DNA of 35,146 bases from a virus (Duplodnaviria; Heunggongvirae; Uroviricota; Caudoviricetes). Shown here one piece after another: positions 8,094 through 33,881 of the stretch (position 1 is the stretch's first letter; the number at the start of each line of letters is the position of its first letter). The notes beneath the pieces were generated by a model. The model worked only from the letters and a program-made list of their open reading frames with translations, did not search any database and was not told the DNA's origin. The stretch lies in the IMG/VR virus record IMGVR_UViG_2909309443_000004. The stretch is one strand, 5' to 3'. The position numbers and the translations under genes were made by a program.

Positions 8094-8130
8094 TACCAGC
8101 GCGATAGCGCATTTTTTTACGTCTATATGA

Positions 8131-18733: not shown

Positions 18734-21246
18734 TGCCAGTCGTACCAACAGTATCCGGACGTCAGGTTGAGAGTCGTGGAGTTCAGTCAGCAGGCTTGCA
18801 GACGTTTTCTCAGCAAGGTATTGGTGATGCTTTTGTTCGGGCAGGGACAGAGGCAATTGATGTTTTGGGGCAGGCAAAACAGCGTGCCAATATCGCTCTG
18901 GCTCAGGAGGCATCTCTTAACCTCAGTCAGATAAGAAGCGATCTGCTGAATAATCCTGAAACAGGATTGCTTAACCTGAAAGGGAAAAATGCTATTGGAA
19001 AAGGCCATGAGTATACGCAGCAGTTTGATGCTCAGGTCGAACAACTGGCTATGTCGCTGCCGGATGAACAGGCTCGTAATGCTTTCATGCAGCAGGCGCA
19101 GCAGCAGCGCATTCAGTTCACTACGCAGGCCGGGCGACACGAGATAGGGCAAATTAATGCCTACGAAGAAGGCCAGTTTCAGGCGACACTGCTGAACAAT
19201 GGTAAAAATGCCGCAGCATTGTATGGCGACAACGCCGCATACGTATTGGCTAACAAGCAAACTTTCCAGCAAATTGAGGAGTACGGTGTTGCACATGGCT
19301 GGAGCAACGAGCAAATCCAGGCCAAGAAAATCGAGTTTAAAGAGAAGGTTGCTGATGCTGCATTGTCCCAGTGGTCGGCAAACAATGCGACCGCATTCAT
19401 CCAAAGTAATGGCGAGTTAAGTGATACTGCTGCTGGAGCTCGCCGTGCTGTAGCAGATAGTGACTCTTCCGAGCGTGCCCGTGGCATACGCAACAATAAC
19501 CCAGGAAATCTCGAATACAGCAAAACTAATCCGTGGGTAGGCCAGACCGGTGATGATGGTCGATTTGCTAAATTCGAAACACCTGAACACGGGATTCGTG
19601 CATTAGGGCGGAACCTGATGTCGTATCAGAGGCAGGGTATTGATACCGTCAGCGAGATAATTAATCGCTGGGCACCGCCTGCTGATAAAAATGACACTAT
19701 GTCGTATATCAAAGCAGTGTGCGAACAACTTGGCGTTTCTGCTGATGAGCCTCTCGATGCATCTAATCCTGATACCCTGAAGGCGCTTTGTGCAGCCATT
19801 ATCCATCATGAGAACGGTAGCCAGCCATACAGTGATCAGCAGTTAACTGCTGGTGTCAGTGCAGCACTTGGTTTATCAACAATTCCAACCAACACCAAAC
19901 GCTATACCGGTAATGCAGCATTCGATGCGGCATCTCCTGAGGCGCAGGCAAGTTTTATGCGACAGGCGGATCAACTGCGTCGGCAGCAGCAGGCTGAATA
20001 TAAAACGATGATTGACAGCCAGGTTCGCGATGCGACAGCTGCGTATATGCGTGGCGTTGAATTTCCTAACCCACCTGGTGAGGCTGATTTTATTGCAGCT
20101 TATGGCGTCAGAGAAGGAAACCTGCGATATACCGAGTTCAGAAATACGCAGATCGCCGGACAGTATATAGGCTCTTTCCGCAATATGCCGACAAGCAGCA
20201 TTACAGCATATGTTGAGCAATTACGCCCGGATACTGGTGAGACAGGGGAGGGGTATGCGGCACGCGCAGCTCTTTATGACAACGTTGTTTCGGCTGCAAA
20301 TCAGGTGATAAAGCAGCGGCAGTCGGATCCTGTGCAGTTCTCTCTTTCCTCCGGACAGGCAAAGCCTATCGACATGAGCAATAAGGATAACTTTGGACAG
20401 AGCGTTGCCTTGCGTGCTGCTCAGGTCAGTGACCTTGCTAAGTCATATGGCACTCCACTGACGTTCTTTTCCAAAGACGAGGCCAATCAAATCGGTGTTT
20501 TCTTTCGTGATGCGCCCGTTTCCCAACAGGCTGCATATCTCGATACCATCAGGCAAAGCACTGGTGGTGGGCAGGTGTATATGTCAGCACTACAGCAGAT
20601 CAGTGCCAACGCTCCATCTGCTGCCGTTGCCGGGATACTGATGGATAAGCCTGGTGGTATTTTGGCAGAAAAAAACTGGTTTAATCCGGATGTTTCCGTG
20701 TCTCCTGAAACCGCTGCGCAGACAATTCTTGCTGGCGCTGCGGCTCGTAAAGGTACTGATGATGCGAAAGGTATTCCGATGCCTAAAGATGCTGATCTTC
20801 GCCTTGAGTTTTCTGACATGGTGAAGGATGCATTTGCTGGTGACGCTCATGGGGCATCAATGGCATACGAGATCGCAAAGGATTATTACGCTGGTGTGAT
20901 GGCGAAAAAAGGCGTGGTATCAGGAGAAATTGACAATGATGTCTGGAAACAGGCTGTTAACGTAGCTACAGGTGGCGTGCATGACTATAACGGAATGGGG
21001 AATGTCCTTTTGCCGTGGGGAATGTCTGCAGAGCAATTCGATAAGCAGGTTAATCAGGCTTGGAATGAACAAGTTGTCGGCTCCGGGATAAAAACACCGC
21101 CTGGTCAGTATGGTTTGCAAAGTTACGGCGATAGTCAGTACCTGGTGAAACTTGGCGCTGGTTATCTGCTGAAAGATGATGGTTCTCCCGTTGTTCTTAA
21201 TCTGACACAGAAGCGTCAGAGATTCTCCGGAGATATTCCGCAATGA
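18733..21246 (+). CDS. Internal virion (ejection) protein, large
   Basis: Track ORF 18658..21246; probable ATG 18733 overlapping upstream TAA; 837 aa, Gln/Ala-rich; contains conserved-looking block RGIRNNNPGNLEYSKTNPWVGQTGDDGRFAKFETPEHGIRALGRNLMSYQ...IINRWAPPADKNDT. Confidence 0.55.
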   Translation: MPVVPTVSGRQVESRGVQSAGLQTFSQQGIGDAFVRAGTEAIDVLGQAKQRANIALAQEASLNLSQIRSDLLNNPETGLLNLKGKNAIGKGHEYTQQFDAQVEQLAMSLPDEQARNAFMQQAQQQRIQFTTQAGRHEIGQINAYEEGQFQATLLNNGKNAAALYGDNAAYVLANKQTFQQIEEYGVAHGWSNEQIQAKKIEFKEKVADAALSQWSANNATAFIQSNGELSDTAAGARRAVADSDSSERARGIRNNNPGNLEYSKTNPWVGQTGDDGRFAKFETPEHGIRALGRNLMSYQRQGIDTVSEIINRWAPPADKNDTMSYIKAVCEQLGVSADEPLDASNPDTLKALCAAIIHHENGSQPYSDQQLTAGVSAALGLSTIPTNTKRYTGNAAFDAASPEAQASFMRQADQLRRQQQAEYKTMIDSQVRDATAAYMRGVEFPNPPGEADFIAAYGVREGNLRYTEFRNTQIAGQYIGSFRNMPTSSITAYVEQLRPDTGETGEGYAARAALYDNVVSAANQVIKQRQSDPVQFSLSSGQAKPIDMSNKDNFGQSVALRAAQVSDLAKSYGTPLTFFSKDEANQIGVFFRDAPVSQQAAYLDTIRQSTGGGQVYMSALQQISANAPSAAVAGILMDKPGGILAEKNWFNPDVSVSPETAAQTILAGAAARKGTDDAKGIPMPKDADLRLEFSDMVKDAFAGDAHGASMAYEIAKDYYAGVMAKKGVVSGEIDNDVWKQAVNVATGGVHDYNGMGNVLLPWGMSAEQFDKQVNQAWNEQVVGSGIKTPPGQYGLQSYGDSQYLVKLGAGYLLKDDGSPVVLNLTQKRQRFSGDIPQ

Positions 21247-23045
21247 GTTACTTTGGCCTTAATCCAGTAAACCAGAATCAGCAGCTTGACGAAGCAGCAT
21301 CAAATCCAGCTGGCTTTAACAGCAATGTTGGTTTTTTCGACAATGCTGTAGGAGCGGCATTGTCTGGTTTGTACTCCGGGCTGGTGGCAAAGCCAGATCA
21401 GTTGCTATGGGCAGGGATGGATAAAATCGTATCCCCGATTGCTCAGTTTGTTAACGAAAACACCTCGCTCAATGACACTTCAGTTTCATACATTGCTGAG
21501 CAGAGAAAACTAGCAGAGCAGCAGGTTAAGCGGCTGACGCCTGATGCGGCGACAACCGGAACCGCCGGGCAGGTCCTTTATGGGTTGTTCGATATGGGCG
21601 GGCAGGCTGTTGTCGGTACAACGCTCGGTGGTCCGGTCGGAGGTGCTGCGGCGGTAACTTCGCTACAGGGTTTTTCTGAGTTTGAACGGCTGACAGCACA
21701 GGGTGTTGATTTCAGGACGGCGCAGGAAGCGGGATTAGTGCAGGGTATTACTGCTGGTGCCGGAACACTGATCCCTATGAGCCTCGGGTTACGTGCTGGT
21801 GGTGCGCTGGCGGAAGGTGTGGCGGCTCAGCTTGCGCGGACTGGTGAAAGTTCAGTGCGACGCGCCGCAGCAACAGCAGTACGTGCAACGCCAGATATTG
21901 CCTATGCCGCAGGTACAAATATTGCGTTCGGTATGGCACAGCGTGGGCTTACTGCAAAAACGCTTCGTGATGGTGGCTATAGCGAAATGGCTAACCAGTA
22001 TGATGTGTTGGATCGACAGGCAATTGCTATTGATGCTGTTCTTGGGGTGGCGTTTGGTGGTGTCGGCAGATTTATTAACTCTCGCGGCGAGTCTACAAGC
22101 GCACCAAATTTTTCACCAGTTGATGTTGATGCTGCACTGGCGGCGAATGCCGCTCATCATGCTGAAATTGATATTGCGCCCGGCGTGCCGATCAACGTGC
22201 TTTCGCGCAATTCTCACATTCAGGCTCTGCGAAAAGCTATGTCTGATGTTAGCCAGGGGAGACCTGTAGACGTTGCCAGCATTGTTGAGTCTGCATCTTT
22301 CAGTGAAATTCCTGGGCGCAAGAGTCTGCTGTCTCAGGCAGTTAATGAGGCTCTGTCATCTGTAGATGATGGAGTAACGGCGCGCGCTATAGAAAATCGG
22401 TTGCTTGAAGAACAGGCCGCGCAGCTTTTGCCGCGTGGCGATAGACAGGTTTACCAGTCTGAAATCGCTAATAGCCAACGAATTATTGAAAATCTCACTG
22501 AACAGCGCGCACAAATTCTTGCAGAAGAGCCAACCGGTAGCGGTAAATCTTTGTCTCGTGCTCGATCAGATAAACAGGTCAGACTTCGCGATATTGACCA
22601 ACGAATCCGGCAGGCACAAGAACGCCTGGAATTTTCCCGTAACGCGTTGGCGCCGCACGAGCCTGGAGGTCAGTTTTTTGAAGCTCGAGCAGAACTGGCA
22701 CGGCGACAGCAGGCAGAAAGTGAACTTAATGCTCAGGCTGTTTCATTCTATAAAACAGCAGAGGTCAGGACGCCAGACGAAGTAGCTCCTTTTGAGCCCG
22801 GTAAGATATTGCAACAGACAGAACAAAAAATGATGGCAGATCCGGCAGGAGATATTGATCTGCGTATAGCTGAAGACTCGCTGCTTGAATCTCCGGACAT
22901 GATAATCACCGTGCTGGATGATGATGGTAATCCACAATCGCGCAGTGCGCGTGAAGTACTGGATGAAGCGAACAGGGAAAGTGAGCAGGCAATACAGGAT
23001 TCCAGCCTGTTTGATGTTGCTGTGGCGTGTTTCTTGAGAGGTTAA
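21243..23045 (+). CDS. Internal virion (ejection) protein
   Basis: 600-aa ORF, Gly/Ala-rich N-terminal half, coiled-coil C-terminal half; ATGA overlap with upstream gene. Confidence 0.55.
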   Translation: MSYFGLNPVNQNQQLDEAASNPAGFNSNVGFFDNAVGAALSGLYSGLVAKPDQLLWAGMDKIVSPIAQFVNENTSLNDTSVSYIAEQRKLAEQQVKRLTPDAATTGTAGQVLYGLFDMGGQAVVGTTLGGPVGGAAAVTSLQGFSEFERLTAQGVDFRTAQEAGLVQGITAGAGTLIPMSLGLRAGGALAEGVAAQLARTGESSVRRAAATAVRATPDIAYAAGTNIAFGMAQRGLTAKTLRDGGYSEMANQYDVLDRQAIAIDAVLGVAFGGVGRFINSRGESTSAPNFSPVDVDAALAANAAHHAEIDIAPGVPINVLSRNSHIQALRKAMSDVSQGRPVDVASIVESASFSEIPGRKSLLSQAVNEALSSVDDGVTARAIENRLLEEQAAQLLPRGDRQVYQSEIANSQRIIENLTEQRAQILAEEPTGSGKSLSRARSDKQVRLRDIDQRIRQAQERLEFSRNALAPHEPGGQFFEARAELARRQQAESELNAQAVSFYKTAEVRTPDEVAPFEPGKILQQTEQKMMADPAGDIDLRIAEDSLLESPDMIITVLDDDGNPQSRSAREVLDEANRESEQAIQDSSLFDVAVACFLRG

Positions 23046-23050
23046 ATTAA

Positions 23051-25525
23051 ATGAGACAGGAATGTATACAAGCGGTCCAGCAGGCGGCGCAGCGCACGTT
23101 AACGGCGCGAGAAATACAGAACATTGAAGACCGCATTTATCGAAATATGCGCTCCATTGCTCGTGATGACCCGATGTCGTGGCGACAACTTTCCGAATCA
23201 GAACGGTTGTATCGTGCAGCACAATTGGCATCTGAAGAATTACAGCGAGAAGCGGCATTAAAGAAACGTCGTGTGGCCCTCACTATAGCCGCACGTCAGA
23301 GATTGGATAAATTTATCAATAACTATCAAGGGGCTGATGGGAAACTTGGCGCTCTTAACCGTACTATTGCTTTTAATGCAGACGGTAAATCGAATTTCCT
23401 CTCTGTTGAATCCAGAACAAAAGCCACTCGTGATTATGCATTGAGTCAATTGCAGGAGGCATTTGAAGCAGTTGATCCTCGCTTTTTTGGCCTGTTTGAA
23501 GATGAAGCGGGCGTGCGTGACCTGGTATATGAAATGCGAGGGCAAAATACTGGCAATGCTAAAGCAAGAAAAGGTGCTAAGGCGTGGAGAGAAGTGACAG
23601 ATCTACTTCGCCGCCGGTTTAATGATGCTGGTGGGGACATTGGCTATCTCGAAAACTGGGGGATCCCTCAACATCATTCTATGGAAAAGGTTGGGGCGGT
23701 ATCAAAAGATAAATGGGTTAGCGATGTTATAGGTAAGCTGGATCGCAAATATTATACCCGAGCCGATGGACAACTGATGAACGATGCCGAGTTGTCTGCA
23801 TTTCTTGGAGAGGCTTATAACACGATCGCTACTGGTGGGCTGAATAAGCTTACTGACACCGGAATGCGAATTTCCGGAGCACGTGCTAACCGTGGTAATG
23901 CATCACGACAGATACATTTCAAAGATGCAGATTCCTATCTGCAATATCAGCAACTTTATGGCGATCGCTCTCTATGGGAAATCATGGTCGGTCACCTGGA
24001 AGGTATCAGTAAAGATATTGCACTGGTGGAAACATATGGCCCAAACCCCGATCATGTTTTCCGCTCTCTTCTTGATCAGGTGAAGGCAGAAACGGCAACA
24101 GCTAACCCGAGTAAAACCGGTAGCGTCGAGCGTCTGGCGAACAAAACAGAGAACTTGTACAACTTTATTTCCGGAAAAACACAGCCTGTAGCGAATCCCC
24201 ACATCGCGCGATGGTCTGACAATATCCGCAACTGGCTGGTTGCCAGCAGACTCGGATCCGCGTTGCTGTCATCGTTCTCTGATCTTGGAACCATGTATCT
24301 GTCTGCGAAGGTTACCAACCTTCCAATGAACCAGTTATTTCGCAACCAGCTTGAAGCTATTGACCCAACGAACCGTACTGAGCTTGCGCGGGCGCGCCGC
24401 GCTGGCCTGGCGATGGAATCTCTACTTGGCAGCGTTAACCGCTGGGCGATGGATAATATGGGGCCGTCTGTGTCTCGTTGGGCGGCAACGGCGGTAATGC
24501 GTGCCAGTGGGCTTACAGCATGGTCAGATGCGCACAAGCGCGCCTATGGCGTAACCATGATGGGAAGCCTGGGAGAAGTAGTGTCACGGACACCAGACCT
24601 TCGTAGCCTCGATGACTCTGATTTTCGTATCCTGAAAAGTAAAGGGATTACTGACACAGACTGGAGCGTATGGAAGCTGGCGCAACAGGAGGACTGGGGG
24701 AACGGTAATAATACGATGCTGACACCGGAAAGCATTATGCGTATCCCTGATTCAGCAGTTAAACATCTTGGTGAGCCTGAACGCGTGAAATTTGAGGCAA
24801 TGCGTAAACTGCTCGGTGCCGTAACTGAAGAAGTTGATATGGCTGTTATTACACCGGGCGCACGTGAGCAGATGTTCGTAGGGTCTGGTCTTCAGCGTGG
24901 AACATGGAAAGGTGAATTAACGAGAAGTGTTTTCCTGTTTAAATCGTTCCCTATCTCGGTTGTTATGCGTCACTGGTCACGCGCTATGGGTATGCCGTCT
25001 GCTGGTGGGCGTGCAGCATATATAGCAACGTTTTTAGCAAGCACAACCATGCTTGGTGCTCTTTCCATGCAGATTACTGATCTTATTAATGGGAGAAATC
25101 CAAAGGAAATGACCGGTGACCACATGGTTAAATTCTGGATAAATGCATTTTTAAAAGGTGGCGGGGCTGGGTTGTACGGTGATTTTCTTTTCTCTGACCA
25201 CACTAGGTACGGGAGCGGCGCGCTGGCGTCGATGCTTGGCCCGGTAGCTGGTCTGGTTGATGATGTAGTGAAGATTGCTCAGGGCATACCGTTAAATGCT
25301 GTGGAAGGGAAGAGTGAGCAGACTGGTGGTGATCTGGTGAAGCTGGGGAAAGGTTTGATGCCTGGTGCGAATCTCTGGTACTTGAAGGCGGCTCTCGATC
25401 ACATGATCTTTAACCAGATGCAGGAGTATTTTTCACCAGGTTATTTGCGTAAAATGGAGCAACGTTCGAAGAAAGAGTTTAACCAGACATACTGGTGGCG
25501 ACCACAGGATGTCACTCCGCAATAA
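23051..25525 (+). CDS. Internal virion (ejection) protein, T7 gp16-like C-terminal region
   Basis: 824-aa ORF; C-terminus (..GPVAGLVDDVVKIAQGIPLNAVEGKSEQTGGDLVKLGKGLMPGANLWYLKAALDHMIFNQ..) has the character of gp16-family tails. Confidence 0.55.
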   Translation: MRQECIQAVQQAAQRTLTAREIQNIEDRIYRNMRSIARDDPMSWRQLSESERLYRAAQLASEELQREAALKKRRVALTIAARQRLDKFINNYQGADGKLGALNRTIAFNADGKSNFLSVESRTKATRDYALSQLQEAFEAVDPRFFGLFEDEAGVRDLVYEMRGQNTGNAKARKGAKAWREVTDLLRRRFNDAGGDIGYLENWGIPQHHSMEKVGAVSKDKWVSDVIGKLDRKYYTRADGQLMNDAELSAFLGEAYNTIATGGLNKLTDTGMRISGARANRGNASRQIHFKDADSYLQYQQLYGDRSLWEIMVGHLEGISKDIALVETYGPNPDHVFRSLLDQVKAETATANPSKTGSVERLANKTENLYNFISGKTQPVANPHIARWSDNIRNWLVASRLGSALLSSFSDLGTMYLSAKVTNLPMNQLFRNQLEAIDPTNRTELARARRAGLAMESLLGSVNRWAMDNMGPSVSRWAATAVMRASGLTAWSDAHKRAYGVTMMGSLGEVVSRTPDLRSLDDSDFRILKSKGITDTDWSVWKLAQQEDWGNGNNTMLTPESIMRIPDSAVKHLGEPERVKFEAMRKLLGAVTEEVDMAVITPGAREQMFVGSGLQRGTWKGELTRSVFLFKSFPISVVMRHWSRAMGMPSAGGRAAYIATFLASTTMLGALSMQITDLINGRNPKEMTGDHMVKFWINAFLKGGGAGLYGDFLFSDHTRYGSGALASMLGPVAGLVDDVVKIAQGIPLNAVEGKSEQTGGDLVKLGKGLMPGANLWYLKAALDHMIFNQMQEYFSPGYLRKMEQRSKKEFNQTYWWRPQDVTPQ

Positions 25526-25721
25526 GGAAGTGTTGTGTTTTTAATTATTTTGAGTGTGATAATTTCTGGTGGATTGTTATTTATTGACCGCTACAAATAT
25601 TTTCTTAACCCTCAGACTCAAGCTATTTGCTGGTTCATCTTTGTTGTGCAGGGAGTAGTTCTTGTTGCAAGCCTTATTGAGGGGAGGCCTCTTATTTTTA
25701 CTGGGTAAATTAGGTGACTAC

Positions 25722-26018
25722 ATGCAAGCTATAGGATTCATTGTTTATATCGTCGTTGGTCTTTTTCAGTTGGCAGCAATTATGGCTGGGCTTGAATCAT
25801 GGTGGGGATTGCACTGGATAATTGCAGCCCCCATTGCTTTCATCGTGAGCTATATTCCATTTGTTGGAGCGATTGTTGGTATGGTTGGCGCTGTGGATGT
25901 ATGGCGGTGGGAGTGGTGGCAGGCTGGCCTTCTCTTCTTTGGTGGGATCATCTTTGCTATTGTCTGCGGTGGAATGTCATCATTTTTCGAATGGCTAGCA
26001 TTCAGAAAAGGAACGTGA
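25722..26018 (+). CDS. Small polytopic inner-membrane protein (3 predicted TM helices), function unknown
   Basis: Track ORF 25662..26018 (TTG); ATG 25722 follows AGGTGA; hydrophobic segments IGFIVYIVVGLFQLAAIMAGL / IIAAPIAFIVSYIPFVGAIVGMVGAV / LLFFGGIIFAIVCGG. Confidence 0.5.
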   Translation: MQAIGFIVYIVVGLFQLAAIMAGLESWWGLHWIIAAPIAFIVSYIPFVGAIVGMVGAVDVWRWEWWQAGLLFFGGIIFAIVCGGMSSFFEWLAFRKGT

Positions 26019-26049
26019 CATGTCACAGGCCGCTTTCGCGGCCTTGTTT

Positions 26050-26211
26050 TTAACGAATGCCACCGCCTCCCGGGCGGGAATCCGCAGAACGCCCACCGCA
26101 GCGGGAGCCGTCAGCGGCAGTATCGCTGTCGTGCTGACAACGACCGGCAAAGGCCTGAGTTGAAGCTACCAGAGACAACAAAACGAACAGTGCAGCAAAT
26201 GCTTTTTTCAT
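26050..26211 (-). CDS. Small secreted Cys-containing peptide (53 aa precursor)
   Basis: Internal Met of track ORF 26050..26283 gives MKKAFAALFVLLSLVASTQAFA signal peptide followed by 31-aa Gly/Arg/Asp-rich peptide with 2 Cys; weak RBS. Confidence 0.35.
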   Translation of the reverse strand: MKKAFAALFVLLSLVASTQAFAGRCQHDSDTAADGSRCGGRSADSRPGGGGIR

Positions 26212-26282
26212 TGTGAAATTTCCATCTATAAGCCACCTCAATGTGGCGTCAATGAGTGTAGCACTGACTTTTGTTTCGTCCA

Positions 26283-26304
26283 CAAAAAATCCCGCAGCGC
26301 GGGC
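26283..26304 (-). terminator. Rho-independent terminator after 147-aa gene
   Basis: Minus-strand hairpin CCCGC-gct-GCGGG followed by TTTTTTG, 2 nt after stop of 26305..26748 ORF. Confidence 0.5.
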
Positions 26305-26748
26305 TTATTCTTCTTCTTCATCATTAAAAAGCGGATTGTTGTTTCCATCTGATGAAAGGAAAGGTATGTGTTCTCTTGAAAATCCAACAATGACAATTTC
26401 ATTATCATTTTTTGCATAATGAATGCATTCATTAGAATGCATTCCGCCAGGGTTGAAATTTAAGTTAATGGTATAATTCTTAAATGTGTTTGGATACCAT
26501 GTTGGCCCACAATGATAATGCCAATAATTCTCTTGCTCATAATTGTCTGAGCCTGGAATTTTATCATGGTTATCATCAACCCACGAGGGCTTGTTTTTTC
26601 CAACAAGCGCCCTTCCATTGGCAACATCCTCTAAAAACCTTTGTATGATTTTTATTTCATCATCAGTAAGGAAAGGTCCGTCTACAGCGAAAGGGGTGTT
26701 GCTTTCCCCATGTAGAAAACTATTAGATATTCTAATGTTAAACTTCAA
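26305..26748 (-). CDS. Unknown AT-rich moron protein with acidic C-terminal tail (147 aa)
   Basis: TTG start 7 nt after AGGAG; markedly lower GC than surroundings; His/Cys cluster (YWHYHCGP...HSNECIHY) and terminal FNDEEEE; no recognised family. Confidence 0.55.
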   Translation of the reverse strand: MKFNIRISNSFLHGESNTPFAVDGPFLTDDEIKIIQRFLEDVANGRALVGKNKPSWVDDNHDKIPGSDNYEQENYWHYHCGPTWYPNTFKNYTINLNFNPGGMHSNECIHYAKNDNEIVIVGFSREHIPFLSSDGNNNPLFNDEEEE

Positions 26749-26768
26749 GGAAAACTCCTGATGTGCTT

Positions 26769-26936
26769 CTATTTGGAGCGAAATGCCGCCTTGAAGTCGC
26801 TAAAAGATGTTCCTGTCTGGTAAACCATATCCTTGTCGCGCTCTTTGCTTGCGCGACCAAGCATAACTTTTCCAATGACATCCCAGCATTGCTTGGCTTG
26901 TTCATTGTGCTGAGTACGATTTTTCAACGCTGTCAT
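26769..26936 (-). CDS. Small basic protein (55 aa), first gene of two-gene operon with 26305..26748
   Basis: Manually translated MTALKNRTQHNEQAKQCWDVIGKVMLGRASKERDKDMVYQTGTSFSDFKAAFRSK; GGAGG 6 nt upstream of ATG; operator palindrome 12 bp upstream. Confidence 0.4.
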   Translation of the reverse strand: MTALKNRTQHNEQAKQCWDVIGKVMLGRASKERDKDMVYQTGTSFSDFKAAFRSK

Positions 26937-26948
26937 ATCGCGCCTCCT

Positions 26949-26963
26949 TTACCTTTAAGGTAA
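26949..26963. promoter_or_regulatory. Operator palindrome TTACCTTTAAGGTAA overlapping promoter of 26936<-operon
   Basis: Perfect TTACC-N5-GGTAA; upstream (minus-strand sense) TTGGCG ... TAATAT hexamers at -35/-10-like spacing. Confidence 0.5.
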
Positions 26964-27029
26964 TATTACGCGAATCTACATCACATCGCCAATGATTATT
27001 TTAAAGGCACATCCCTGTGCCGCCGCCCG

Positions 27030-27749
27030 TCAGAAGAACCCTGCCTTGTCGTTGATGTACTCCGCGTGGGTCTGGATATCACGCAGGCATTTGCTCACAC
27101 CGACGATGTAGCAGAACATGGTGGTCAGTTCCGCCGCCGCGCCCGATACGTCATGCCCGTCTTCCTGTAACTGGTTCAGCAAATTCATCAGCAGTGAGTT
27201 CTCCGTCAGGCCGAGAACACCAGACGGTGAATGAATCAGGCTACGGTAGCCGGGCTTCAGTGGGGCGCTGTAGGTTTTGTTCTCTATCTTCATTGCCTGC
27301 ATCACTGCTGATGCTGTGGCGTTGGCTACCTGGTCGGCAACCATCTTTATGCGTTCTTCTTGCGGGAGCGAGTTTTTAATGTAACTTCCGGTGCGGCGGA
27401 TCTGAGGAAGAACCTCACCTGTAACCCATTTACGAAAGCGGTATGGGATAGTGCCTGGTGTCACCGCATCGCGGCAGCGGAGGATCAGTGTGTAGAGGCC
27501 TGACTCGTTGATAATATTGGTTTCGCCTTGACGGCCTAAGTTAAATTTAGCCCTTTCATCATCATCAAGAGATTTTATTGACATAGTGGGGTTTGTCAGT
27601 TGAAGAGCTTTAATAACGTCTTTGGCAACAAACCAAGGATTAATCGCAAATCCAACTCTCCTCAGAGTTATAACGCTCAAACGCTTTACACATACTTTGT
27701 GTTGGTGCTGGAGGGCGTTCAAGGGCAGCCATGACTTGCTCCCAAACAT
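27030..27749 (-). CDS. Bro-N-like antirepressor-type protein with C-terminal domain paralogous to 28868..29125 product
   Basis: Track ORF 27030..27758; Bro-N-like segment GFAINPWFVAKDVIKAL...SGLYTLILRCRDAVTPGTIPYRFRKWVTGEVLPQIRRTG; C-terminal ~90 aa share clear similarity with ORF 28868..29143. Confidence 0.6.
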   Translation of the reverse strand: MFGSKSWLPLNALQHQHKVCVKRLSVITLRRVGFAINPWFVAKDVIKALQLTNPTMSIKSLDDDERAKFNLGRQGETNIINESGLYTLILRCRDAVTPGTIPYRFRKWVTGEVLPQIRRTGSYIKNSLPQEERIKMVADQVANATASAVMQAMKIENKTYSAPLKPGYRSLIHSPSGVLGLTENSLLMNLLNQLQEDGHDVSGAAAELTTMFCYIVGVSKCLRDIQTHAEYINDKAGFF

Positions 27750-27924
27750 CCTCTTCAACGATCAAGCGGCGATGTTCATTAATAACTGTTTCAGCTCTAA
27801 AAGTCGTAGACTCCATTACAAATTGAGATACGGACACTTTAGAAATAACAGCAGCTTCTTCGATACGGCGCTTCGCAGCTTCGGGCAGACGAAACTCGAA
27901 CCGCTCCTTTCTTACTGCGTTCAT
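27640..27924 (-). CDS. DUF1778-like ribbon-helix-helix protein (TacA-antitoxin-like / Arc-like regulator)
   Basis: Track ORF 27640..27948 (GTG); ATG 27924 lies 5 nt after AGGAG; sequence MNAVRKERFEFRLPEAAKRRIEEAAVISKVSVSQFVMESTTFRAETVINEHRRLIVEEDVWEQVMAALERPPAP fits DUF1778 RHH pattern; no GNAT toxin partner present. Confidence 0.6.
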   Translation of the reverse strand: MNAVRKERFEFRLPEAAKRRIEEAAVISKVSVSQFVMESTTFRAETVINEHRRLIVEEDVWEQVMAALERPPAPTQSMCKAFERYNSEESWICD

Positions 27925-27988
27925 AACAACTCCTGAGCTAATGCTCACAGTGGTTTATACCACATAACGATATGCACGGTACGGGAAT

Positions 27989-28096
27989 TTACCGTACAGG
28001 TAATGATAAGCGCGAAGAAATATTAAAATCAACCTTATTTGGTTGATTGCGTTTAACGCTTGATCACCTGAAAGCAAGATATTACCTTTAAGGTAA
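27989..28096. promoter_or_regulatory. Operator pair TTACCGTACAGGTAA (27989-28003) and TTACCTTTAAGGTAA (28082-28096) in divergent promoter region
   Basis: Two perfect palindromes between divergent RHH/Bro-N operon and membrane zinc-ribbon gene. Confidence 0.5.
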
Positions 28097-28116
28097 TGTT
28101 ATTGTGAGGAAAAGCA

Positions 28117-28845
28117 ATGGAAGTTTTCTGGATAGTTGTTGGTGTGGTTGCGGTGATTATTTACGTTATCAACCAGAACAAGACTAAGATCTCTGATCGT
28201 ACGGTCGTTAATCATAACAAAACGATAAAGACCGAAGATGGGGAGATAACGATTAATCGTACACAGGTGATAGAACACACCTCTACTCAGTTTCAAAAAA
28301 CTGGAGGTAATGCGCCTAATATTTCCGCACCTCCTGCTTATGATAGTGCGGTAATCCAGACATATTATAAACAGCAGGAGTTAGCAAAAGAGAGGCAACT
28401 GATTCAGCCAAAGCCGTTTACAACTGAGATTCCACCTGGAGTGTCAACGCGTCCGGCATATCATGGAAGATTCCCTGGTGATGACATATCGTCTCAGTCA
28501 TCTAAAAAAGCACCTCAGGCAATATCAGAGCCAGCAAGAATACCTTCTGTATCGCCGCAAAAAGAAGAATCAGCTAACAGAGTTTCAAGTGGTAGCAAGC
28601 AGTGCTTGCGATGCAGAATAAACCTTCCATATGAAAAATTCAGGAAATCGTCAAAAAATCCAGATGGATTGACTAAATGGTGTGCAAGGTGTCTCGATGG
28701 CCCAAAGAATACACGCCATATGAAGTGGTGCCCAATTTGTAATGTCCGCAGAAAACGAACCAGCTTTTACCCTAATAATCAAAATGCGGACGGCTTAATG
28801 GCATGGTGCAAAACGTGCTGGGATGAGCACAAAGCGAAACGATAG
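28117..28845 (+). CDS. Membrane-anchored protein with duplicated C-terminal zinc-ribbon motifs, function unknown
   Basis: 242-aa ORF; N-terminal TM helix (FWIVVGVVAVIIYVI), long low-complexity linker, then two repeats CLRCRINLPYEKFRKSSKNPDGLTKWCARC and CPICNVRRKRTSFYPNNQNADGLMAWCKTC. Confidence 0.6.
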   Translation: MEVFWIVVGVVAVIIYVINQNKTKISDRTVVNHNKTIKTEDGEITINRTQVIEHTSTQFQKTGGNAPNISAPPAYDSAVIQTYYKQQELAKERQLIQPKPFTTEIPPGVSTRPAYHGRFPGDDISSQSSKKAPQAISEPARIPSVSPQKEESANRVSSGSKQCLRCRINLPYEKFRKSSKNPDGLTKWCARCLDGPKNTRHMKWCPICNVRRKRTSFYPNNQNADGLMAWCKTCWDEHKAKR

Positions 28846-28867
28846 GCCGCTCTTGCGGCCTTTAAAT

Positions 28868-29125
28868 TTACCGGGTTTGTTTTCGTAATTGTTCGGCACA
28901 ATAGTCGAGATGTGTTTGCAGATCCCGCATAGACATCTGTGAGCTGGTGACGTAGTTAATCAGTGCAGTCAGTTCGGCAAGTGGGCCATCGACATTAAAT
29001 CCATCCTTATCGAGATCCCGGAGTAATTTCATCAAGTGCGATCCCTCCACCAGTGACCTGACGCCTCCCGGCGTGTGAATCCTTTCGGTAAATCCGTCTT
29101 CCAGTGGATAGTGATACCGCTGCAT
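28868..29125 (-). CDS. Small protein paralogous to C-terminal domain of Bro-N-like protein
   Basis: Track ORF 28868..29143 (TTG); ATG at 29125 with GGAG RBS; ..LMKLLRDLDKDGFNVDGPLAELTALINYVTSSQMSMRDLQTHLDY.. aligns with ..LMNLLNQLQEDGHDVSGAAAELTTMFCYIVGVSKCLRDIQTHAEY.. of 27030 gene. Confidence 0.55.
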   Translation of the reverse strand: MQRYHYPLEDGFTERIHTPGGVRSLVEGSHLMKLLRDLDKDGFNVDGPLAELTALINYVTSSQMSMRDLQTHLDYCAEQLRKQTR

Positions 29126-29201
29126 CTTATCTTCTCCATGCAATAACTGTATATTTATACAGTATCAAATAATTTGTTTGCTATCCAGCACGTTTTGCAA
29201 A

Positions 29202-29216
29202 TTACCCGAAAGGTAA
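29202..29216. promoter_or_regulatory. Operator palindrome TTACCCGAAAGGTAA between 29125<- gene and tailspike
   Basis: Perfect TTACC-N5-GGTAA in 195-bp divergent intergenic region. Confidence 0.45.
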
Positions 29217-29320
29217 TATCTATTCATATTCACAGCCTTTCTATCCATATGTGGTTTTTCAGGTAATAGAATAACCAGATATGCGGCGCAACGGGTGCTG
29301 CGACTATCTGGAGATTTAAC

Positions 29321-31921
29321 ATGACGGTCTCAACCGAAGTTGACCACAACGAATACACCGGTAACGGCGTTACGACATCATTTCCGTATACCTTCCGTAT
29401 TTTCAAAAAAACCGACCTGGTTGTTCAGGTGTCTGATCTGAACGGGAACGTAACAGAATTGGTTCTGGATACCGGTTATAAGGTAACTGGAGCGGGCACT
29501 TATAGTGGCGGTGAAGTGGTTCTCCCGTCGCCGCTTGCTGCTGGCTGGCGAATTACGATAGAGCGTGTGCTTGATGTGGTGCAGGAGACTGATCTTCGCA
29601 ATCAGGAAAAATTTTTCCCCGAAGTTCATGAAGATGCATTTGACTACCTGACGATGCTGATCCAGCGATGTTTTGGGTGGTTCAGACGTGCATTGATGAA
29701 ACCCTCGTTGCTTGCAAAATATTACGATGCAAAGCAAAACAGAATATCTAACCTTGCTGATCCATCACTTGAGCAGGACGCTGTAAATAATCGCTCAATG
29801 CGTAATTATGTCGATGCTGCAATCGCCGGGGTTGTTGGTGGTTTTGGTTGGTTTATTCAGTATGGTTCTGGAGCAGTATACCGAACGTTCCAGGATAAGA
29901 TGCGGGATGAAGTAAATATTCGTGATTTTGGAGCAGGAGATTCAGGTGAAGTTACAGATGCTATTTTGAAGGCTGTTGCAGCTACTAATGGCACCATTAT
30001 TATCCCGGATGGAAATTATGTTTCTACTCCAACAGTAACGCAGACTCCGAACGTTATGAAATTGCTTTCACGAGCAGAGTTTAGAGGTTCTTTGACCATC
30101 AATCTTCCTGTTGGAACTGTTAACCTATCAGAAAAGACGCTAATCAGATCACAAAATGTTCATAAACTTTCTATTTCTGGTATTACGTATTCAACTACGC
30201 TAACTGGCTTAGTGGGTGTATCTGGTATCCCCAAATCATACCTAGTTACGCTCTCTCTGGCTGATGCTTCAAACGTTTCTGTAGGCGACGTCGTGATGAT
30301 TCGTCACGATATAACGGGGACAGGAGGATATCACATCCATTGTGGCGGATGGGTTGTGACTGCCGTGTCTGGCAAAAATGTTACCGTAAAAAACACCTGC
30401 CACCTGTCTGAATTACCAACGTCAACGATTACAGGCGGAACAGTAGTCATACTAAAAAGTATTCTGAGATATGCCGGATGTGATGGGATTGTGGCTGCAG
30501 GTGCTGGGTGCATTAAGACAATAAACGGTGTCGCAATTGTTGGTGATTATGACCTTGTGGCCGGCACTGGAACTATTGGTGCGCATGGTTTCTCCCTCAC
30601 TACTCCAGACATTACTGTTGCCATCCCAGACCCATCCAACGTGGTTTTTGATGCGTCAGGATGTATAGCAATTGGGCCTGATCTGGCGATCGTTGGGTTC
30701 GGAGAACAGGGGGTCGTGGCTTCAGAAAGATCTGGTGTGGTTTCAAACTTTATATCTTCATGCTCTAACCGCAAGCGCGGTGTATATTCTGAAGGCGCTC
30801 ATATACGCGGTAAATTTATGCTTTGCTCAGGGAATGGTGAGGATGGGATTATTGCTGATATTGGTGGCGCAATACAGGCTAACGGATCAGTTTGCTCTGG
30901 CAATGGGTTGAATGGGTTCTGGTCTTTTAATCATAGTTTTTTGGGGGCACCAGGGGGGATTGCGTGCGGTAACTATACCAATGGTGGTGAATCACGCGGA
31001 CCAGGTGCATTAAATCTGCAAAATGGGAAGAGCTATTTAAACAGGCTAATTGGTGTAACCGCTTCAAATAGCGGTGCAGTTATTTTCACTAACTCAACTG
31101 CCACACAAAATGGCACGGATGGTCTGGTTGCTGTTTACGATGGCTTAATATCTGCCGCCAATGCCAATTCAACGAGCAACGGTCGCTATGGGGTTAACGT
31201 AACTCACGCAAAAATTGTGCTTAAAGGCTCTGGAGGAGTGACTGGTAACACAACGGGAGATTACATCGATAACGGCGAGGGCACAATAATCAAGCCAGAT
31301 GGTACTATGCTGCCGAGGAATGCTGGCCCGCAAAGCATCCTTTCTATTCGTAACGCCAATCTTTCCGGTGCTGATGTCACGGCATCATCAATAGGCGATC
31401 TCACCGTCTCGCAAAGAAACACATCCTCGGGTGCATTAACCCCCCTGTATGTATTCAAATCTGACGGAACCCAGCATCCAGTCAATGACGCCACGCAGAA
31501 CCTTGGCAGGGCAAGCAATCGCTACAATGTTGGTTTCTTCGCTGGCGGAACACAGTCAACTTCAGATGCCACACTTAAAGACCCTATCCGGGAGTTCAAT
31601 CAGGCCGAACTCAATGCAGCAATGCGCATCTCGAAAATGTTTGGATTCTGGACGTGGCTTGATGATGACAGTAAGCGTTTGCATGCAGGGACTACGGTTC
31701 AAGCAGTGTTAGCTGTTCTGGAAGAGGAAGGTCTAGACTGGCGGAGCTATGGATTTATCTGTTTTGATGAGTGGGATGATGAATATACCCCGGTAACCAT
31801 TGAGGTAGATGGCGAAGTCGTTGAAACTGGCGAACTGCAATTAGTACGTGAGTCTGGTTCTGTATGGCAATTACGCGATCAGGAATTTGACAGATTCGTG
31901 ATGCGTGGACTTTCCGAATGA
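29321..31921 (+). CDS. Tailspike protein: T7 gp17-like N-terminal anchor, central beta-helix-like receptor-binding/depolymerase region, C-terminal intramolecular chaperone (peptidase S74-like)
   Basis: 866-aa ORF; N-terminus MTVSTEVDHNEYTGNGVTTSFPYTFRIFKKTDLVVQV typical of podovirus fibre/spike anchor; Gly/Ser/Asn-rich repetitive middle; C-terminal S-D-A-T-L-K autoproteolysis-like motif followed by conserved chaperone block. Confidence 0.8.
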   Translation: MTVSTEVDHNEYTGNGVTTSFPYTFRIFKKTDLVVQVSDLNGNVTELVLDTGYKVTGAGTYSGGEVVLPSPLAAGWRITIERVLDVVQETDLRNQEKFFPEVHEDAFDYLTMLIQRCFGWFRRALMKPSLLAKYYDAKQNRISNLADPSLEQDAVNNRSMRNYVDAAIAGVVGGFGWFIQYGSGAVYRTFQDKMRDEVNIRDFGAGDSGEVTDAILKAVAATNGTIIIPDGNYVSTPTVTQTPNVMKLLSRAEFRGSLTINLPVGTVNLSEKTLIRSQNVHKLSISGITYSTTLTGLVGVSGIPKSYLVTLSLADASNVSVGDVVMIRHDITGTGGYHIHCGGWVVTAVSGKNVTVKNTCHLSELPTSTITGGTVVILKSILRYAGCDGIVAAGAGCIKTINGVAIVGDYDLVAGTGTIGAHGFSLTTPDITVAIPDPSNVVFDASGCIAIGPDLAIVGFGEQGVVASERSGVVSNFISSCSNRKRGVYSEGAHIRGKFMLCSGNGEDGIIADIGGAIQANGSVCSGNGLNGFWSFNHSFLGAPGGIACGNYTNGGESRGPGALNLQNGKSYLNRLIGVTASNSGAVIFTNSTATQNGTDGLVAVYDGLISAANANSTSNGRYGVNVTHAKIVLKGSGGVTGNTTGDYIDNGEGTIIKPDGTMLPRNAGPQSILSIRNANLSGADVTASSIGDLTVSQRNTSSGALTPLYVFKSDGTQHPVNDATQNLGRASNRYNVGFFAGGTQSTSDATLKDPIREFNQAELNAAMRISKMFGFWTWLDDDSKRLHAGTTVQAVLAVLEEEGLDWRSYGFICFDEWDDEYTPVTIEVDGEVVETGELQLVRESGSVWQLRDQEFDRFVMRGLSE

Positions 31922-32059: not shown

Positions 32060-32473
32060 GTGGTCACTATGTCGCACACGTTAACCACGGGAACGCTGAA
32101 TCAGGGGCTTAGCCTGAGCGCGCTAATGTCTGTGGTCGCTGGCGTGCCGCCTGAAGTGGCTTTAGGGGCGCTCGCTGGTGCGGTAATTTTTGTTACCTCT
32201 GCTGTCGAGTATCCGATCCGCCGCCGGGTTCTCCTGTCGATGCTCAGCTTTCTTTGTGGCCTTCTCTTTTACAAACCAGCAGCATCAATTCTTATCGGCA
32301 TAGCCAGCCTGATACCTACCATCACGCAGGATTCTTTCGAGAAAGGGATTGTTTTCTCTGCTGGCGCATTCGTGTCAGCAATCGTCGCAGTACGAATTGG
32401 CATCTGGCTCTATCACCGTTCCGATAATCCACGCGAGTTAATTCCGGGGAGAAAAGACGATGGTAACGCATGA
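32060..32473 (+). CDS. Holin-like membrane protein
   Basis: 137-aa ORF (GTG 32060 or ATG 32069) with multiple hydrophobic segments, first gene of lysis cassette upstream of endolysin. Confidence 0.55.
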   Translation: MVTMSHTLTTGTLNQGLSLSALMSVVAGVPPEVALGALAGAVIFVTSAVEYPIRRRVLLSMLSFLCGLLFYKPAASILIGIASLIPTITQDSFEKGIVFSAGAFVSAIVAVRIGIWLYHRSDNPRELIPGRKDDGNA

Positions 32474-32768
32474 GTTTTTTTTGCTTATCACCAATGCAGT
32501 TATTTGTACTGGCATAGCAATTCGCGTTGTCACATTCCGGCGTAACGGCTCTCAACATCGAAGATGGGGAGGGTGGCTTGCTTATTTCCTTATTGTTGCT
32601 GCGGCCAGTATTCCTGTTCGTGTCGTCTATGCAATCTGGTTACGCACGCCAATGGCTGTGGATTTATCTGAGGTCATTATCAATGCTGTCATGCTTGCCG
32701 CGGTTATTAAAACACGCGGTAACGTTGTTCAGATTTTCAAAATATCGAGGTCTAAACATGGAGATTAA
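32460..32768 (+). CDS. Second small membrane protein of lysis cassette (possible antiholin/pinholin-like)
   Basis: 102-aa ORF with 3 hydrophobic helices, overlaps holin end and endolysin start. Confidence 0.45.
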
Positions 32769-33387
32769 ACAATTCCAGCGAGCTGCTGGTATTAGCGAGG
32801 CGCTGGCCGCACGCTGGTTCTCGCATATAACTTCTGCGATGAAAGAGTTTGGTATCAGCAAACCAGAAGATCTGGCAATGTTTATTGCTCAGGTCGGGCA
32901 TGAGTCTGGAGGCTTCACCCGGTTGCAGGAAAATTTCAACTACAGCGTCAGCGGACTGGCTAATTTCGTTCGGGCTGGGCGTCTCACTCAGGGACAGGCC
33001 AACGCATTGGGGCGTCGTGCTGGTGAACCACCATTGCCACTTGAGCGCCAGAGAGCGATCGCCAATCTGGTGTACAGCAAACGCATGGGTAACAATGCCC
33101 CAGGCGATGGATGGAATTACCGTGGGCGCGGACTTATCCAGATTACCGGTTTGAATAACTATCGTGACTGCGGAAACGGCCTGAAAGTGGACCTGCTGGA
33201 GAGTCCTGAACTGCTGGCGCAGGACGAATACGCGGCTCGTAGCGCGGCGTGGTTTTTTGCCAGCAAAGGCTGCATGAAGTATACCGGCGATATTGCACGT
33301 GTAACTCTGATTATCAATGGTGGCCGGAACGGCATTGATGACCGGCGCGCGCGATACATCACTGCCAGTAAGGTGCTGGCGGTATGA
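32758..33387 (+). CDS. Endolysin, glycoside hydrolase family 19 (chitinase-like lysozyme)
   Basis: Track ORF 32527..33387; ATG at 32758; motifs [33 protein letters not shown] typical of GH19 phage endolysins. Confidence 0.85.
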
Positions 33388-33881
33388 TCTGGGCATTCGC
33401 AAAAGCATACTGGAAACAGTTGGTTATCATGGCGATGCTTGCTGTTCTGGTCATATCAGGAGTTGTAGCCTGGAATGCACACGGCAGTCGTCAGTACGAC
33501 GCCGGGTATGCGCAGGCACAGGAAGATCAGAAGCAGGCTGATGATAAGGCCAGGTCACAACGTGATCAGGAGAAAACACAAATTGAACGTGAAGCACAAT
33601 CCCGTATCGATGTGGCGCGTGTTGATGCTGAGCATGCTAATGCCGCTGCTGACAGCCTGCGCGCCGAGCTTGACAAAACCAAGCGACTCGCCGAACACTA
33701 TACCGGATCTTTCCCCACTGGCACGCCAGCCAGCAAGGTCATCGGTGTGCTCGCCGACATGCTTGAAGAAAGCAATCGAGTTTACAACGCAACAGCAGCT
33801 GAGGCTGAAAAGTATCGGATTGCAGGAGAATCCTGCGAACAGCAATACGATTCACTGAGGAAGCAAAAATCGTGGCACTGA
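33384..33881 (+). CDS. Rz-like i-spanin
   Basis: 165-aa ORF, N-terminal TM helix ([18 protein letters not shown]) then coiled-coil periplasmic domain; ATG overlaps endolysin stop. Confidence 0.7.
33610..33858 (+). CDS. Rz1-like o-spanin lipoprotein embedded in +1 frame of Rz
   Basis: Embedded ORF with signal peptide and lipobox ([12 protein letters not shown]) followed by Pro-rich segment; wholly inside Rz gene. Confidence 0.5.
   Translation: MWRVLMLSMLMPLLTACAPSLTKPSDSPNTIPDLSPLARQPARSSVCSPTCLKKAIEFTTQQQLRLKSIGLQENPANSNTIH

Follow-up and report, generated by a model that had tools for sequence, protein, structure and literature searches.

A hypervariable accessory slot behind the ejection-protein operon of an epsilon15-like Escherichia coli prophage encodes a predicted inner-membrane protein and a predicted secreted cysteine peptide

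The window analysed here is a 35,146-nucleotide stretch of viral DNA (IMG/VR record IMGVR_UViG_2909309443_000004) representing a temperate podovirus of the genus Uetakevirus, similar to epsilon15 and phiV10 and integrated in Escherichia coli. Our subject is a pair of small open reading frames (ORFs) beyond its internal-virion (ejection-type) genes: ORF-A, for a predicted polytopic inner-membrane protein, and ORF-B, on the opposite strand, for the precursor of a predicted secreted peptide with two cysteines. They lie in a hypervariable accessory slot between the ejection-protein operon and the antirepressor/tailspike genes, and the slot carries two independent units, one made up of ORF-A and a smaller membrane-protein gene, orf57, and the other of a self-contained ORF-B cassette. 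Judged by their sequences, ORF-A and ORF-B are prophage cargo of an already known kind, encoding small envelope proteins. At the level of the genes, our description (genuine genes, the layout of the operon, an add-on or 'moron' cassette, an export signal) is highly probable, and for the best explanation as a whole, an accessory slot with a late-operon membrane pair and an ORF-B moron whose product would act on the envelope, we estimate a probability of about 0.4. The 821-bp region around the two ORFs is 99% identical to Escherichia phage phiv142-3 and 100% identical to a prophage of enterotoxigenic E. coli (ETEC) O6:H16 strain M9682-C1.

Both ORFs exist at exactly the coordinates proposed by a first-pass annotation of the window, and conservation, ratios of non-synonymous to synonymous substitution (dN/dS), PHROG matches and calls by the Prokaryotic Genome Annotation Pipeline (PGAP) agree on this. 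ORF-A (ATG at 25722, stop at 26018, 98 residues) has an AGGTGA Shine-Dalgarno sequence 4 nt upstream, and PGAP makes the same call in the M9682-C1 prophage (WP_024203028.1). It matches phrog_3075 over residues 1-98 of 98 (E=7.3e-54) and has 52 homologues in Enterobacterales, from Escherichia, Klebsiella, Cronobacter, Dickeya, Kosakonia, Yersinia and Salmonella. Compared with Klebsiella phage vB_KpnP_BUCT711 (BUCT711), ORF-A shows 91% protein identity (85% for the adjacent gp17) and a dN/dS of 0.027, synonymous sites being saturated. ORF-B runs on the minus strand from an ATG at 26211 to a stop at 26050 (53 residues), as in PGAP call WP_000708858.1; it matches phrog_14503 over residues 1-53 of 53 (E=2.3e-40), has 52-57 homologues across Enterobacterales and gives a dN/dS of 0.041 against BUCT711, again with synonymous sites saturated. 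On the evidence of dN/dS, conservation and the PHROG matches we rejected the reading of either as a chance ORF. Longer versions were discarded as well: homologues in other genera begin MQAIG, which excludes a 118-residue ORF-A from a TTG at 25662, or MKK, which excludes a 77-residue ORF-B from a GTG at 26283, and PGAP adopts the shorter form in both cases.

The families concerned, phrog_3075 for ORF-A and phrog_14503 and phrog_3117 ('membrane associated protein') for ORF-B, are full-length matches. Searches of Pfam, NCBIfam and PADLOC returned nothing above threshold for ORF-A, ORF-B or orf57, and neither ORF-A nor ORF-B showed homology to the PHROG functional families or, by sequence, to solved structures in the Protein Data Bank (PDB). 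Expression signals accompany the conservation, and no known unrelated membrane protein emerged as a homologue.

We consider orf57 and ORF-A most likely to be the last cistrons of the late transcript, since the gaps between genes are short, no promoter was detected upstream and a terminator follows straight after. The final large gene of the late structural operon encodes an 824-residue gp17-type protein, 96.5% identical to PhiV10p20 and 27% identical to epsilon15 gp17, which orf57 and ORF-A follow after gaps of 9 and 13 nt. No sigma-70-like site was detected upstream of ORF-A on the plus strand from 21400 to 25722, and the eight promoter-like sites across 12 kb are fewer than in shuffled sequence (13.6). 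The terminator hairpin at 26027-26044, with six G-C among its seven pairs and a T-run on the plus strand only, is the top-listed terminator-like site on that side of the window, and a terminator is annotated at the corresponding place in phiV10 and epsilon15. The stop codons of ORF-A and ORF-B lie 31 nt apart around this hairpin, so that the genes are convergent and not 'divergent' as first described. In GC content ORF-A (0.47) does not stand out from the window (0.49).

ORF-A had also been placed right after the ejection-protein genes. The slot is indeed the one named, but the conserved orf57, which was unannotated and which PGAP omits too, intervenes, its GTG start lying 9 nt past the gp17 stop codon. 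This ORF is kept at 57 residues in BUCT711 (77% amino acid identity, dN/dS 0.19), has a tblastn match in about 66 of 80 IMG/VR ORF-A loci, and is laid out as a transmembrane (TM) helix, a basic loop and a second TM helix; its GC content is 0.37. A small two-TM gene follows gp17 in every Uetakevirus examined. Epsilon15 gp18, PhiV10p21 and SPN1S_0020, two-TM proteins of 46-64 residues each followed by the operon terminator, are like orf57 in slot, strand and TM-loop-TM layout, and BLASTP finds no similarity between orf57 and PhiV10p21. Their phages differ in lacking ORF-A, which is an extra, larger gene here. Inside the 3' end of orf57, just 5' of the ORF-A ribosome-binding site, there is a weak hairpin with a T-run (25678-25694, plus strand), which could be a partial attenuator between the two membrane-protein cistrons.

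Within Enterobacterales the neighbourhood of ORF-A varies little. A gp17-like gene lies directly 5' of it in 79 of 80 IMG/VR loci, Cronobacter prophages have a gp17-to-ORF-A gap of 1 nt, and in a Salmonella prophage with another gene order the ORF-A homologue again stands directly 3' of the gp17 homologue. Adjacency is retained in these Cronobacter and Salmonella prophages at 24-27% identity for gp17 and 54-60% for ORF-A. At the same time ORF-A is dispensable for the phage lineage, because, among 127 phage records that include a gp17 homologue (at >=80% identity in 26), only 7 encode it; ORF-B occurs in 12.

At the protein level, certain Gly, Pro and Trp residues are unchanged throughout the ORF-A alignment, which also has a loop rich in Trp, DVWxWEWWQ. 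When 1.84 billion representative proteins were searched with a profile, 741 clusters fell into the family at E<=1e-3 (306 at E<=1e-10), mostly of 90-120 residues; some are fused to DUF805, RDD, zinc ribbon or MORN domains, generic membrane partners that are uninformative. The AlphaFold2 model, built from a 27-sequence alignment, is confident (predicted local distance difference test, pLDDT, 90.8) and consists of two long helices (residues 2-28 and 65-97) and, between them, two shorter ones separated by a break (32-42, 46-59). The loops at positions 24-31 and 58-66 are both acidic, with hardly any Lys or Arg, the C-terminus carries about three basic residues, and N-terminal extensions in the wider family are mildly basic. 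Given this charge pattern and the helix layout of the model, two TM helices and a hairpin that re-enters from the periplasmic side, with both termini in the cytoplasm (N-in/C-in), would fit better than three membrane crossings. The original description as a 3-TM membrane protein therefore holds for the membrane location, while the third TM helix is doubtful. Membership of Phage_holin_5_2 was considered and dropped, the match (E=0.027) scoring 15.2 bits against a gathering cut-off of 29.2, with the lysis cassette located elsewhere (32060-33881).

ORF-B has the features of a classical Sec signal peptide, and its product is predicted to be exported. The sequence consists of MKKAFAALFVLLSLVASTQAFA (signal peptide, residues 1-22, 26211-26146) followed by GRCQHDSDTAADGSRCGGRSADSRPGGGGIR (mature part, 26145-26053). 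The signal comprises an MKK n-region, the hydrophobic stretch AFAALFVLLSLVA and the segment STQAFA before G, in which A-F-A followed by G forms an AxA cleavage motif whose -1 Ala shows conservation of at least 90% across 47 sequences. Hydrophilic in character, the mature part of 31 residues holds two cysteines, Cys25 and Cys38, in keeping with the secreted Cys peptide of this length first proposed. We infer that the precursor would be cleaved after Ala22 and oxidised to a 31-residue periplasmic peptide with a Cys25-Cys38 loop. The product was also considered as a lipoprotein and rejected, the Cys being mostly preceded by G-R or G-N (FAGRC, FAGNC), which the lipobox [LVI][ASTVI][GAS]C forbids. 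In NCBI, homologues carry the name 'transmembrane anchored protein', a tag with no experimental basis that probably reflects the signal peptide or the mis-started 77-residue version; a literature search found no paper combining this name with 'phage', nor one containing the motif DGSRCG.

Alignments of the ORF-B family reveal a signal peptide that drifts and a mature core that is almost invariant: C25, D30, A32, D34-G-S-R-C38 and G-G-R-S-A-D-S-R-P-G-G, generalising to C-x4-D-[TR]-A-[AS]-D-G-S-R-C-G-x-R-[SA]-[AS]-x-x-R-P-G-G-x and then the stop codon. This 25-residue Cys-loop core is nearly unchanged from Escherichia to Rhizobiales and cyanobacteria, mostly outside prophages. A profile search collected 1099 proteins at E<=0.01, among them proteins of Pseudomonas, Mesorhizobium and Methylobacterium, and a scan of one genome per species located the family in 57 species, including Rhizobiales, Vibrio, Bacteriovorax, a Polyangiaceae metagenome-assembled genome and many cyanobacteria. 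In Bacteriovorax, Nostoc and Nodosilinea the motif C..D.A.DGSRCG.R....R.GG is the C-terminal module of ORFs of 116-279 codons (7266-8102 in locus L227, 7575-8081 in L229, 7734-8081 in L234), apparently encoding larger secreted proteins. Since it also ends such much longer ORFs, the core appears to behave as a small autonomous domain and not solely as a stand-alone peptide. The breadth and near-invariance of this peptide family are the most interesting by-product of the analysis.

ORF-B sits in a discrete cassette. Across 80 IMG/VR ORF-B loci about 300 bp are conserved, beyond whose borders we counted 41 distinct upstream and 28 distinct downstream sequences. The cassette is ordered as an upstream terminator hairpin, a 75-nt leader, the ORF and the hairpin AGGCCGC-GAAA-GCGGCCT. 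The upstream hairpin (26291-26303) precedes ORF-B behind many different genes, and on the other side the palindrome GTGACATGTCAC closes the conserved part in most of the 80 loci, with differing flanks past it. The window has one exact copy of this palindrome, 0.12 being expected for <=1 mismatch, and it could be a recombination joint or a protein-binding site. Within the leader, the first T, the A and the final T of a -10 element TAnnnT (26260-26255) are invariant or nearly so across 14 loci of different genera in diverged surroundings; the TACACT present here was missed by a strict consensus promoter scan. The stem-loop at 26247-26232 is conserved in 12 enterobacterial loci with unrelated flanks, and compensatory changes affect all four predicted pairs (e.g. 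A-U in five loci, G-C in five), so that it may be an mRNA-stabilising or regulatory 5' hairpin.

A moron is an independent add-on transcription unit (Juhala et al. 2000, as summarised in PMC3594210). By sequence, ORF-B has the corresponding features, namely a discrete element between unrelated flanks, a predicted promoter and terminator of its own, and a deviating base composition (GC 0.57, against 0.49 for the window and 0.35 for the 147-residue neighbour); ORF-A lacks the promoter feature, none having been detected. The cassette occurs in two podophage types, between unrelated flanks, and is found beside a different virion module in TL-2011b (gp43), ST512-KPC3phi13.3 and EC.W1-9. ORF-B homologues lie directly 3' of internal-virion genes in Pseudomonas and Mesorhizobium prophages, more distant enterobacterial ones adjoin lambdoid Q and endolysin genes, tail-fibre genes or a tape-measure gene, and others occupy non-phage chromosomal contexts in alphaproteobacteria and cyanobacteria. 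Outside Enterobacterales no conserved neighbour was found, the adjacent genes being mostly housekeeping or mobile-element genes. Because of these diverse phage contexts and of non-phage homologues without a conserved neighbour, ORF-B appears to be a promiscuous cargo gene of bacterial origin that is not tied to ejection proteins. Part of the region is present in 540 of 5426 complete E. coli genomes, the listed partial matches mainly covering the cassette. ORF-A and ORF-B do not constitute a single two-gene system: ORF-B is present in 49 of 80 ORF-A loci and ORF-A in just 22 of 80 ORF-B loci, 31 of which are without Uetakevirus gp17.

Table 1. Features of the accessory slot and its surroundings, in window coordinates
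Feature	Position	Strand	Basis or remark
Internal-virion (ejection-type) large genes	16562-25525	+	late structural operon
gp17-type internal virion (ejection) protein, 824 aa	23051-25525	+	phrog_684 'virion structural protein', E=0, full length
orf57, 57-aa two-helix membrane protein	25535-25708	+	GTG start
ORF-A, 98-aa polytopic inner-membrane protein (predicted)	25722-26018	+	phrog_3075, dN/dS, AlphaFold2
12-bp palindrome GTGACATGTCAC	26015-26026		perfect; overlaps ORF-A stop codon
Intrinsic terminator, hairpin AGGCCGC-TTTC-GCGGCCT plus T-run	26027-26052 (hairpin 26027-26044)	+	end of late operon
ORF-B, 53-aa precursor	26050-26211	-	phrog_14503, dN/dS, family alignment
Stem-loop GCCAC-ATTGAG-GTGGC	26232-26247	-	at or near 5' end of ORF-B mRNA
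Candidate -10 hexamer TACACT, preceded by TGC	26255-26260	-	ORF-B promoter (candidate)
Terminator hairpin CCCGCGCTGCGGG plus T-run	26291-26303	-	ends upstream 147-aa gene; left cassette border
147-aa gene (phrog_5954, WP_000671196.1)	26748-26305	-	adjoins ORF-B
55-aa gene	between 147-aa gene and Bro-N gene	-	gene order
Bro-N antirepressor-like gene	27030-27758	-	Bro-N domain
TacA/DUF1778-like antitoxin ORF	27643-27948	-	Pfam TacA1, E=3e-19
242-aa zinc-ribbon protein (phrog_6762)	28117-28845	+	gene order
85-91-aa gene	between 242-aa gene and tailspike	-	gene order
Tailspike gene	29321-31921		gene order
Lysis cassette	32060-33881		Phage_holin_8 and second holin at 32060-32768

Several of the surrounding genes deserve a brief description (Table 1). 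No GNAT toxin partner is visible for the TacA/DUF1778-like ORF, which overlaps the start of the Bro-N gene instead; HicAB, YafO or DUF2335 genes occupy its slot in related phages. The 242-residue protein has two C-terminal zinc-ribbon-like stretches and weak matches to endonuclease VII, HNH and Lar-like restriction-alleviation PHROGs, and is present in TL-2011b too (96% identity), where it is marked merely as a misc_feature. More envelope-type cargo is found at the right end of the window, with a DUF5384 protein at 34079-34615 (minus strand) and, at 34769-35146 (minus strand), a glycine-zipper 2TM protein with weak similarity to the complement-resistance lipoprotein TraT, whose ORF exits the window. 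An Rfam scan of 24500-29500 gave no credible non-coding RNA.

For ORF-A, superinfection exclusion is the leading guess, plausible by analogy. We postulate that ORF-A, seated in the inner membrane, would interfere with the gp17-type DNA-delivery conduit of incoming relatives and would be SieA-like in action, not in ancestry; its location in the late operon suggests that it would act mainly after induction or during infection. As a specific assignment, an exclusion protein acting on this conduit is doubtful. For ORF-B we tentatively favour a conserved component of the host envelope as the target. The mature peptide would bind this component rather than a phage protein, because the gene travels with unrelated phage types and has many non-phage homologues, and it could give the lysogen an envelope-level benefit such as exclusion or tolerance of stress or serum.

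The comparison with SieA was prompted by position. In P22, ejection gene 16 is immediately followed by sieA, which is read from the opposite strand and from a promoter of its own; next come mnt, arc, ant and gene 9 (tailspike). The slot described here, bounded on one side by the gp17-like gene as the last internal virion gene and on the other by the antirepressor/tailspike genes, is analogous; ORF-B shares the orientation of sieA and a predicted promoter of its own, and ORF-A is likewise predicted to be a small polytopic inner-membrane protein. However, ORF-A shares the strand of the late operon and no promoter could be detected for it, the product of ORF-B is not a membrane protein, and the phage is an epsilon15/phiV10-like Uetakevirus rather than a P22-like phage. 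SieA itself is an inner-membrane protein of 162-164 residues with three TM helices and a cytoplasmic C-terminal motif, FxRYPxEAxxFNK (PMC10883804); it blocks the gp16/gp20 conduit, is up-regulated on induction and is found only in P22-like prophages (PMC10883804, Leavitt et al. 2024). ORF-A, by contrast, has 98 residues and ends in SSFFEWLAFRKGT, the motif is absent from the family alignment, and hhalign of the 27-sequence ORF-A alignment against P22 SieA (type A) gave a probability of 0.3% over nine aligned columns. The positional analogy with sieA thus survives, but we reject membership of the SieA family at the sequence level. A SieA-like action of ORF-A is still conceivable, given its tight linkage to the fast-diverging gp17, and a late-expressed exclusion protein is not implausible because sieA itself is up-regulated on induction.

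Other exclusion systems offer partial parallels. HK97 gp15, a YebO-derived inner-membrane exclusion protein encoded by a moron (Cumby et al., PMC3594210), offers by analogy the best precedent for the recruitment of an envelope protein from a bacterial family by way of a moron. The likeness lies in a small envelope protein added on within or beside the virion gene cluster and, for ORF-B, in a promoter and terminator that are predicted to be its own, an atypical GC content and homologues in bacteria outside prophages; in contrast, the sequences are unrelated, ORF-B is predicted to yield a cleaved periplasmic peptide, and ORF-A is without transcription signals of its own. A periplasmic-plus-membrane pair exists in phage T4, where Spackle (Sp), a small, folded periplasmic protein of about 100 residues with a signal peptide, blocks entry of superinfecting phage and Imm, a small membrane protein, blocks DNA entry. 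ORF-B and ORF-A resemble this pair by description, but mature ORF-B has 31 residues and no confident fold, and the two genes are inherited independently of each other.

Several observations weigh against the preferred explanation. First, a few distant ORF-A homologues are stand-alone genes adjoining an integrase at the prophage end, and among sequenced phages the wider family of 741 clusters is confined to the seven records mentioned above, so that a general membrane role for ORF-A is possible. Second, classical prophage exclusion genes are expressed in the lysogen, whereas ORF-A has no detectable promoter of its own. Third, the PADLOC models gave no match to orf57, ORF-A or ORF-B at E<=1. Fourth, AlphaFold2 predicts the signal helix of ORF-B confidently and no confident fold for the mature part, which has a pLDDT of 42-67 and a hint of a beta-hairpin at the D-G turn. 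Lastly, the lambdoid, tail-fibre, tape-measure and non-phage contexts of ORF-B weaken a role specific to ejection proteins.

One alternative keeps the host-envelope part of the preferred explanation and drops the exclusion phenotype. ORF-B would here confer fitness of the lysogenic-conversion or virulence type, perhaps as a periplasmic peptide acting on an envelope sensor, on a protease or cell-wall enzyme, or on serum resistance, a reading that we judge rather unlikely. The autonomous cassette makes expression from the repressed prophage likely, to go by its predicted signals, and it occurs in unrelated prophage types at classic moron sites, including the lambdoid Q and endolysin genes; the widespread non-phage homologues and the recurrence of part of the region in complete E. 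coli genomes point the same way. For phiv142-3 it was reported that serum resistance falls when part of the gene region next door is deleted and that 'orf10' (QGF19616.1) raises serum resistance and K1 capsule expression (PMC7724020). This 'orf10' is an alternative-frame ORF nested inside the conserved 147-residue gene (26305-26748, minus strand; 6805-7386 in locus L001), and the deletion primers map to 26400-26440 and 26639-26678; the knockout therefore destroys the 147-residue gene too, to which the serum-resistance/capsule phenotype may belong. The reported serum phenotype is a neighbour's and not that of ORF-B, no conserved neighbour names a target for ORF-B, and the peptide has no similarity to a known effector. 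The phiv142-3 transcript table lists up-regulated genes only, and orf11 and orf12 are not among them.

A different view of the membrane pair takes ORF-A and orf57 as late lytic membrane effectors, either a holin/antiholin-like lysis timer or a pore-loop channel that changes the membrane potential. Their place at the end of the late operon, the predicted ORF-A architecture (outer helix, re-entrant hairpin, inner helix) and the sub-threshold Phage_holin_5_2 match are what one would expect from it, but a separate lysis cassette (Phage_holin_8 plus another holin) is already present in the phage, ORF-A is missing from most close relatives, and some homologues stand alone by an integrase, which makes this view unlikely. 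Equally improbable is a more far-reaching reading, in which the ORF-B core would define an ancient, unrecognised family of secreted disulfide-hairpin peptides of roughly 25-30 residues in diderm bacteria, spanning Enterobacterales, Pseudomonas, Rhizobiales, Vibrio, Bacteriovorax and cyanobacteria. Its target would be a universally conserved envelope machine, and temperate phages of several morphotypes would have captured the peptide repeatedly as a moron that changes the envelope of the lysogen, for instance as a general block to genome entry; separately from this, ORF-A might jam or imitate the gp17-type DNA conduit as a pore-loop membrane protein of minimal size.

That ORF-A and orf57 serve the assembly or ejection of their own virion, by handling the membrane-active gp17 in the producer cell or by being co-delivered with it, is very unlikely. 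Their close and translationally coupled link to gp17 genes of very different sequence agrees with such a role, as does the small two-TM gene in the slot of every Uetakevirus examined. However, the slot occupants are non-homologous to one another, and ORF-A cannot be required since most phages whose gp17 is nearly identical do not have it (phiV10 at 96.5%, SPN1S and Tyrion at about 92%).

Serotype conversion, which the first-pass annotation had also raised, for example by inhibition of the host O-antigen polymerase, draws on general precedent only (the small peptide Iap of Pseudomonas phage D3 is such an inhibitor, epsilon15-like phages are serotype converters, and phiV10 has oac just after its tailspike gene) and is scarcely credible here, given that no O-antigen-modifying Pfam domain was found in the proteins (at least ten) tested in this part of the window, that mature ORF-B is predicted to be hydrophilic and periplasmic and not a membrane peptide, that the prophages carrying ORF-A and ORF-B differ in tailspike and come from genera whose O-antigens are unrelated, and that ORF-B extends to cyanobacteria and Rhizobiales.

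The wider interest of the preferred explanation, an accessory slot with a late-operon membrane pair and an envelope-acting moron, is that small envelope proteins of prophages are a main source of phage-phage exclusion and lysogenic conversion, and that most of them are unassigned. ORF-A is a SieA-independent candidate for blocking the epsilon15-type ejection apparatus, for which no exclusion protein turned up in the searches made here; the related phiV10 infects E. coli O157:H7. At least part of the ORF-B region has a match in about 10% of complete E. coli genomes, including ETEC and Shiga toxin-producing E. coli prophages, and its peptide belongs to a very widespread family without a Pfam model, solved structure or literature match. 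Should neither protein block entry, both would be ordinary accessory cargo; if either does, the finding would be relevant to phage therapy and phage typing.

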